From Octopus vulgaris (lineage: Eukaryota): a stretch of 64,000 bases of DNA. Shown here one piece after another: positions 3,253 through 40,730 of the stretch (the first letter of the stretch is position 1; each line of letters starts with the position of its first letter). The stretch lies in contig OX597836.1 in assembly GCA_951406725.2 (NCBI GenBank), forward strand, positions 10,540,001 through 10,604,000, written 5' to 3'. The notes under the pieces were generated by a model that worked only from the letters and a program-made list of their open reading frames with translations, had not been told where the DNA came from and did no database searches. The position numbers and the translations under genes are program-made.

Positions 3253-3693
3253 CACACGTATATATATATAGGATAAATGTAAAAAAACACAAACTGGGAC
3301 AAGAACGCAAAACATTTAGAAGACGATACAAAAGAACGGACGGGACATTCGAAGCCTTCGATCTTCAGTCAAAAACCGGATCATCTTCGCAATTTCGGCT
3401 GATTAATTTTGACTTTGATTGCTCCGACCTGGCCAGCCCCAAAGGAAAATCTAAGCCAAGCGCATTAGATTCCTTGGAAGAAAGCCTCGAATGTATACAA
3501 AACAAGGACGGGAACGAATAAGAATACATACCACAGGCTTCTTTCAGTTTCCGTCTACCAAATCCACTCACAAGGCTTTGGTCGGCCCGAGGCTATAGTA
3601 GAAGACACTTGCCCAAGGTGACACGCAGTGGGACTGAACCCAGAACCATGTGGTTTGTAAGCAAGCTACTTACCACACAGCCACTCCTGCGCC
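2955..3693 (-). mobile_element. SINE family A, interrupted in its internal microsatellite by a ~260-bp hammerhead-like element
   Basis: 3' part 2955-3250 and 5' part 3535-3693 flank the insert at about 3270-3525. Confidence 0.8.
3362..3422 (-). ncRNA. Permuted hammerhead-like motif, family 1 copy 1 (4-nt insertion at the cleavage site)
   Basis: Minus strand GCAAUC-aaag-UCAAAA..AGCC GAAA UUGC..UUUUGA CUGAAGA. Confidence 0.45.
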
Positions 3694-13316: not shown

Positions 13317-13388
<72 letters not shown>

Positions 13389-13475
13389 ATAAAAATAATT
13401 ACAGACATGGACAAGAACATGAAACGCCACAGAGACGACACAAGAACCACAGGACGGGACATTCGAAGCCCTCAG

Positions 13476-13532
13476 TCATCAGTCAAGAACCAGATCATCT
13501 TAGCAATTTCGGCTGATTAATCTTGAGATTGC
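13476..13532 (-). ncRNA. Permuted hammerhead-like motif, family 1 copy 2 (most intact)
   Basis: Minus strand GCAAUC|UCAAGA UUAAUCAGCC GAAA UUGC (14 nt) UCUUGA CUGAUGA CUGA; 5-bp stem III, 6-bp stem I, AUC triplet. Confidence 0.6.
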
Positions 13533-13605
13533 TCCGATATGGCAGCCCGCCATCTAAGCCAAGTGCATTAGATCCCTGAAGATTCCACATAAGAAAGCTT
13601 ATACA

Positions 13606-40240: not shown

Positions 40241-40358
40241 AATATATATAAGATGCAAAATGGGACAAGAAGCAAAACATCCGGTGATACAAAAAGGGAC
40301 AGCAAAACATCCAGATAGACGATACAAAAAACAAGGACGGGTCATTCGAAGCTTTCTA

Positions 40359-40415
40359 TCCTCAGTCAAGAACCGGATCATCCTCGCAATTTCGGTTGAC
40401 TAATCTTGAAATTGC
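40359..40415 (-). ncRNA. Permuted hammerhead-like motif, family 1 copy 3
   Basis: Minus strand GCAAUU|UCAAGA UUAGUCAACC GAAA UUGC (14 nt) UCUUGA CUGAGGA. Confidence 0.55.
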
Positions 40416-40730
40416 TCCAATCTGGCCAGCCCCAAGGAAAAACAAAGCTAAGAGCATTAGATACCTTGGAAGAAAGCACCGCTCAGTGACTAAAGAAAAT
40501 AGTCTAATAATGGGTCACATAAGCCCTCGACAGAAAAAAAGTACGTTTTTTCTGTACGCGTGGGACTCGAACCCACACTCCCATGTAGCAGGCTTGAGCA
40601 CTTGTGAAGATCTCTTCATATCAAAACATTGGTTGCCTTGTTAATTCATAAATGAAGTACACTCTCTCTGTCTATCTGTCTGTCTGTCTGTCTATCTCTC
40701 TCATACACCCCACTCGCATACATATACATG

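Follow-up and report, generated by a model that had tools for sequence, protein, structure and literature searches.

The minus strand of the DNA stretch analysed here (64 kb, hereafter the window) carries a hammerhead core string at 13476-13532, with homologues at 3362-3422 and 40359-40415, in which the cyclic order of the conserved blocks is reversed relative to hammerhead types I-III. The question raised by this locus is whether such a string can form a ribozyme, how its strands would be connected, and what kind of element carries it. A preliminary description had read it as a non-circularly permuted core. On re-reading the minus strand, we found the blocks in the order NUH, GAAA, CUGAnGA in all three copies, with the described variation at N7 (A, U or G) and H17 (C, C or U); the double change in stem I of copy 1 and the outer helix around this copy are also present. 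The covariation ascribed to the three copies was found to be slight in these copies alone, and the strong signal comes from other subfamilies of the same repeat. Judged from its sequence, the motif is genuine, a hammerhead core in non-circular permutation. Most probably (about 0.8), it represents a self-cleaving hammerhead with a pseudoknotted split core, located at the 3' end of a non-coding, likely non-autonomous Penelope-like element of the Naiad type.

The host genome is large (2.8 Gb) and rich in microsatellites. A core pattern for subfamilies A-D has 6,535 exact matches genome-wide, and the reversed pattern has none. Searches with the window copies and divergent flank copies yielded eight alignable subfamilies (A-D, F, G, I, and J). 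A comparison of eight subfamily representatives shows all 11 of 11 core positions unchanged, compared with 12 of 44 positions in stems, 4 of 18 in linkers, and 21 of 77 in flanks; core conservation exceeds that of the flanks. N7 is U, A or G among the subfamilies, and H17 is C, U or A, with G in none of 159 distinct copies.

Two helices had been offered as stem II, CUGA/UCAG and ARCC/GGUU from the linker. Neither survives comparison of copies: 56% and 72% of cells are paired, respectively, with no compensatory pair, and both were rejected. Stem II is formed by the five bases preceding GAAA and a strand that lies 5' of the cleavage block. The strand immediately 3' of this upstream stem II strand forms an interaction helix with the bases that directly precede stem I. 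The resulting four-helix order from 5' to 3' is stem II, interaction, stem III with NUH and stem I, stem II with GAAA and stem III, interaction, and stem I with CUGAnGA. In a MAFFT alignment of 16 natural copies from 8 subfamilies, 91% of cells in this four-helix pseudoknot are paired and 15 of 23 pairs are compensatory (stem II, 3/5; stem III, 3/5; stem I, 4/6; interaction helix, 5/7), which upholds stems I and III as originally drawn. The observed pairing was reached in 0 of 500 shuffles, a control that relatedness alone can beat with no structure needed, so that independent sets weigh more; slid controls were paired in 15-48% of cells. Nested folding of short windows, with pseudoknots excluded, was no better than for shuffled sequences (z 0.0-1.0). 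Rfam gave no hammerhead match for 13390-13600 or for four metagenomic loci, and of its 330 matches for the whole window, the 150 listed comprised microsatellite noise only.

Two other layouts were considered and rejected. A minimal type I hammerhead using sequence past CUGAnGA has no stem I/III that fits across the subfamilies (by eye). Type SGC, represented by HRIMA-1 (PMC10085705), shares with the window motif the linear order NUH, GAAA, CUGAnGA, an interaction helix, and a short linker between stems I and II. However, its stem II and interaction strands follow CUGAnGA, whereas here they precede the cleavage block; type SGC needs the 5' strand of stem II directly after A9, and the base after A9 is G in only 1 of 159 distinct copies. 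Thus, the non-circular block order of the preliminary description holds, and the motif is not a plain type-SGC ribozyme, the stem II strand being upstream; neither the I/II interaction helix nor hairpin P1 was recognized in that description, nor was the connection to Naiad elements. The base after A9 also makes it very improbable that two tandem units or two molecules together form an ordinary type I-III or SGC hammerhead. Such an assembly is suggested by the occurrence of the units as partial tandems and by reports that Penelope-like hammerheads work as dimers (PMC6765202), but it also needs a stem II strand right after A9. Moreover, the downstream candidates for this strand pair poorly and without covariation, while the upstream strand both pairs and covaries, and a linear form contained in a single molecule exists at locus L398.

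The predicted geometry of the split core corresponds to type CSG (Eckert et al. 2023, PMC10085705) with the chain opened at the A9/G10.1 step. Similarity to type CSG extends to the cyclic block order, the four helices including the I/II interaction helix, the interaction strand directly following the stem II strand, the 2-3 nt that lead to the cleavage block, and the 3-4-nt linker of stems I and II. The difference is that in type CSG block C is uninterrupted and CUGAnGA is contiguous with stem II, whereas in the window family two further helices, P0 and P1, separate them. P0 is formed in many families by the bases that directly follow A9 and an upstream strand; after the latter, hairpin P1 extends up to the base before G10.1. 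In a junction test of 18 hits, one of them a family-H copy in the L238 locus (L017 gave no row), all three joints lacked an unpaired base in 10 hits; 9 hits exceeded the shuffled null at the 5% level or better, and the other 9 fell short. Nested folding of five natural copies of about 120-150 nt gave z from -1.0 to -4.2 and recovered P0 and P1 in four. Neither of two alignments showed significant covariation in P0/P1 (76/500 and 202/500 shuffles).

The decisive natural example of this arrangement is provided by the Naiad-like locus L398, in which CUGAUGA is followed by two closed 4-bp hairpins and then by stem II, the interaction strand, the cleavage block, and GAAA. By its predicted fold, L398 (2330-2450) is a CSG hammerhead with two hairpins inserted at A9/G10.1 and the linear counterpart of the window motif; the window arrangement, folded in the same way, is the L398 form with the loop of the first hairpin opened. 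The core, P0, P1, and stem II would then meet in a four-way junction that preserves the stack of stems II and III. Plain CSG, one extra base, two closed hairpins, and an opened outer helix make a graded series. Weinberg et al. reportedly described in 2015 a hammerhead variant whose GAAA strand holds an additional hairpin. Variants with additional helices are mentioned in a 2026 paper that cites Weinberg 2015 and Forgia 2023, and the accessible part of Forgia 2023 contained no such variant. Smaller insertions have been documented at the same and other core positions. One extra base between A9 and G10.1, A10, is tolerated in the CChMVd hammerhead (PMC3705267, PMC1636495), in comparison with two helices here, and the core insertions U13a, A6a, and 2a/2b (PMC3088659) likewise comprise one or two bases.

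The features of the three window copies are listed in Table 1. All three are damaged and are poor test substrates, because the focal copy is 5'-truncated near 13600 and has lost part of hairpin P1, copy 1 has at the predicted cleavage site a private 4-nt insertion found in 1 of 32 subfamily-B copies, and copy 3 has one mismatch in stem II.

Table 1. Features of the motif copies in the window (window coordinates)
Feature	Position	Strand	Remark
Focal copy, subfamily A	13385..13600	-	5'-truncated 3' end of ~780-bp non-coding retroelement between (TA)n tracts
P0 outer helix, 5' strand remnant	13591..13600	-	truncated in focal copy
Hairpin P1 remnant	13548..13580	-	3' strand partly deleted in focal copy
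Stem II, 5' strand	13543..13547	-	G10.1 onward; displaced upstream of cleavage block
Stem I/II interaction helix, 5' strand	13536..13542	-	
Stem III strand of cleavage block	13528..13532	-	ends in U16.1
Predicted cleavage site	13526..13527	-	3' of C17 (13527); by analogy to hammerhead core
Stem I strand after predicted cleavage site	13521..13526	-	
Stem II, 3' strand	13511..13515	-	ends in C11.1
GAAA (G12-A15.1) and stem III partner strand	13503..13510	-	
Interaction helix, 3' strand	13490..13496	-	
Stem I partner strand	13483..13488	-	
CUGAnGA core (C3-A9)	13476..13482	-	
P0, 3' strand	13459..13473	-	begins two bases past A9
Subfamily B copy	3271..3517	-	complete P0 (3345-3359/3480-3494) and P1 (3439-3477)
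Subfamily B copy, stem II 5' strand	3434..3438	-	
Subfamily B copy, 4-nt insertion	3413..3416	-	at cleavage site
Subfamily C copy	40250..40480	-	P0 5'-truncated
Subfamily C copy, stem II 5' strand	40427..40431	-	one mismatch to 40394-40398

The motif had been assigned to a repeat family beside (TA)n, and its copies indeed sit inside (TA)n tracts. The subfamily A unit is 785 bp long, its longest ATG-started frame encodes 93 aa, and its copies are 95-100% identical to each other. Among 45 matches listed from 30 loci, the 3' ends fall at unit position 774-785 and the 5' ends vary, and an upstream 5'-truncated head-to-tail duplicate accompanies 10 of 26 independent subfamily-A sites. The common 3' end, variable 5' ends, and partial head-to-tail duplicates fit the anatomy of Penelope-like elements. 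In 600 kb of evenly placed genome stretches, the strict descriptor found only one family copy and one chance-like hit (2 hits in 6 Mb of shuffled sequence and 1 in the reversed control), and a profile search of the same 600 kb found 10 matches, mostly partial; therefore, most copies of the repeat are decayed. The motif is covered by assembled contigs of the host species and of three other organisms. A separate observation concerns subfamily F, which forms an array (G000:C27:25601593-25615095, L213-L216) with two ribozyme copies per ~1.3-kb period and interleaved microsatellites.

Two groups of known elements resemble the carrier. Insertion into (TA)n, for which Naiads have a reported preference, partial tandems, and 5' truncation are common to the window repeat and to Naiads (Craig et al. 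2021, PMC8557442). Unlike Naiads, which encode a reverse transcriptase with an N-terminal GIY-YIG domain, the window family is non-coding and is not alignable to the Naiad; no similarity was detected to the Naiad 3' end or ORF. The two have the same fold. Non-coding tandem units with one hammerhead each also characterize the animal non-LTR retrozymes, which have been proposed to be non-autonomous derivatives of Penelope-like elements (bioRxiv 10.64898/2026.07.22.740005). In contrast to the window repeat, retrozymes are defined by type I hammerheads, and circular RNA has been shown for some of them.

The same wiring is present in Naiads. The 3' end of the Octopus bimaculoides Naiad consensus has it with entirely different stems (by eye), the Naiad of the host genome has a 3'-terminal sequence that matches the Octopus Naiad consensus as published, and a Naiad-derived pattern has 333 exact matches in the host genome and 0 in the control. 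One Naiad motif copy is located downstream of a reverse transcriptase fragment (L145/L146); among the closest database relatives of this fragment are proteins that have an N-terminal GIY-YIG domain, and no relative of it was found in viral contigs. With a descriptor of the wiring, 741 kb of selected loci yielded 90 hits and 2.2 Mb of shuffles yielded 1. Flanking DNA revealed a further repeat, family H (L232-L251, e.g., L235:1535-1655), which is also non-coding and (TA)n-associated, carries the split motif, and does not resemble the window family; its first-look candidates number 1,285.

Metagenomic Naiad-like loci extend this distribution. The strict descriptor is passed by 9 of 80 such loci, where the motif is always in sense orientation and lies 3' of the ORF, compared with 5 hits in 20 passes over the shuffled loci, and two further loci, L360 and L391, fit by eye. 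No clear motif was seen in 65 of the 80, including the doubtful L325, many of which have short tails. Five of the nine hits are homologous to each other; their split stem II is 100% paired, with compensatory changes at 5 of 6 pairs, G10.1-C11.1 being the one fixed pair. One more of the 80 loci is L398, with its uninterrupted intermediate form, and at another three, plain CSG hammerheads occur 3' of Naiad-like reverse transcriptase ORFs: L324:2770-2860, L329:3455-3570, and L336:2905-3000. At three loci (L326, L335, and L377), the Naiad-like ORFs are about 1,300 aa long, with a C-terminus 300-400 aa longer than in the other Naiads examined.

The published Naiad file, parsed in part and by eye so that motifs spanning line breaks are missed, contains 19 CTGATGA places, of which 8 have the split form, 1 is degenerate, and 2 are plain CSG. 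The split form belongs to Beroe (a ctenophore), three Acropora, two Octopus, and two further entries. Three more CSG forms occur in the same file, one of which has one base inserted at A9/G10.1, and the nematode Naiad consensus sequences appear by eye to carry plain CSG (PMC8557442). Naiads were reported to lack canonical hammerheads, and 'HHR_core' and 'HHR_half_core' strings fitting no descriptor were noted in several Naiad families, including that of Octopus (PMC8557442).

Which element mobilises the window repeat is a distinct question. The Naiad reading frames in the host genome are broken, the longest having 292 aa, in spite of the 95-100% identity among subfamily A copies, and an intact autonomous partner was not found there by protein searches that scored about 150 of 1,959 and 3,200 candidates. 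The genome also contains a young Penelope-like element with a C-terminal endonuclease, which has many intact frames of 753-782 aa and ends in (TA)n. It is conceivable, although we regard it as less likely than not, that the repeat is a retrozyme-like parasite of this element and does not depend on Naiads. The intact frames and (TA)n ends of the C-terminal-endonuclease element, together with the broken Naiad frames, speak for such a dependence; against it, the 3' region of this element has neither the split motif nor any sequence common to the repeat, and elsewhere the motif goes together with elements that have an N-terminal GIY-YIG domain, which was seen at 6 of 11 motif-bearing loci checked and not found at the other 5. 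This alternative touches the mobilising partner only and is compatible with the ribozyme reading.

Several other observations were made on Penelope-like elements of the host genome. At L438-L445, a young Penelope-like element with a C-terminal GIY-YIG and frames of 753-782 aa has, about 650-700 bases past the ORF stop and near its 3' end, a doubtful type I hammerhead-like string (by eye). The core of this string has U3/A8, its GAAA carries one additional A, and its stem III is palindromic. A second intact family (781 aa, L434-L437) has a 3' region with several repeated TGATGACGTC/CCAAT-like boxes, possibly a promoter. The first 850 bases of the L090 minus strand include a Penelope-like endonuclease fragment with a Cys-rich linker, which we take to be Neptune-like; it lies upstream of a subfamily C copy, with (TA)n between them.

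If the preferred reading, a self-cleaving split-core hammerhead on a Naiad-type element, is correct, P0 and P1 would replace the backbone step from A9 to G10.1, and their four-way junction would keep stem II stacked on the core. The cut is predicted to occur after C17 by standard hammerhead chemistry, as in vitro cleavage has been measured for CSG ribozymes of the same geometry, with rates of 0.004 and 0.026 per minute (PMC10085705, Table 1). Cleavage would trim read-through or tandem transcripts to unit length, and re-ligated or circular units could be copied by a Penelope-like reverse transcriptase, producing partial-tandem insertions in (TA)n. In subfamily A, the predicted cut falls at position 639 of the 785-bp unit and is thus about 146 nt short of the fixed 3' end. 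Since insertions span this site, their template must have been uncut, re-ligated or circular. A circle of about 780 nt would explain the head-to-tail partial tandems, a speculative idea to which we give slightly less than an even chance.

The position of the cut also bears on another interpretation, in which the fold is real and catalysis has been lost, so that a once-active ribozyme is kept as a recognition handle for the reverse transcriptase. Insertions ending some 146 nt past the predicted cut, from a template uncut or re-joined, agree with it. Furthermore, hammerhead mutants of the anole Poseidon element still insert in vitro, and no RNA-seq ends were reported at the Poseidon cut site (PMC11167929). 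We nevertheless consider this interpretation unlikely: eleven catalytic positions are fixed while N7 is U, A or G and H17 is never G, as would be expected under selection on chemistry, and the same pattern is found in unrelated families. In the Poseidon element, hammerhead cleavage needed protein and was dispensable for insertion in vitro (PMC11167929).

We found no report of the split wiring or of CSG or SGC hammerheads in Naiads, in literature mostly outside the subscription journals. Type SGC came from metatranscriptomes and type CSG from two metagenomic sequences, with neither in the genomes of known organisms (PMC10085705), whereas the split form has thousands of copies in an animal genome. 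In our opinion, it is likely that this is a seventh natural hammerhead architecture, active and present in Naiads and non-coding parasites (ctenophores, cnidarians, and cephalopods), with plain CSG in nematode Naiads, and that the reportedly ribozyme-less Naiads are the largest natural reservoir of non-circularly permuted hammerheads. Eckert et al. 2023 explicitly assumed that CUGAnGA and its adjacent stems are inseparable and built their search patterns on this block (PMC10085705). The rule of an indivisible block, which has confined hammerheads to six permutations and shaped the search patterns so far, would be broken. Non-circular permutations would move from a few metatranscriptomic and metagenomic sequences to animal genomes and thousands of copies, the apparent lack of hammerheads in Naiads would be explained, and a universal ribozyme at the 3' end of Penelope-like elements would become testable. 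A core position that accepts whole helices would also be a natural site for engineering switches.

A minor observation concerns the cleavage triplet (window 13528-13527 and its homologues), which is AUC in subfamilies A-D and GUC in subfamilies G and I. The AUC triplet is reported to be almost absent among natural viroid hammerheads (PMC1636495).
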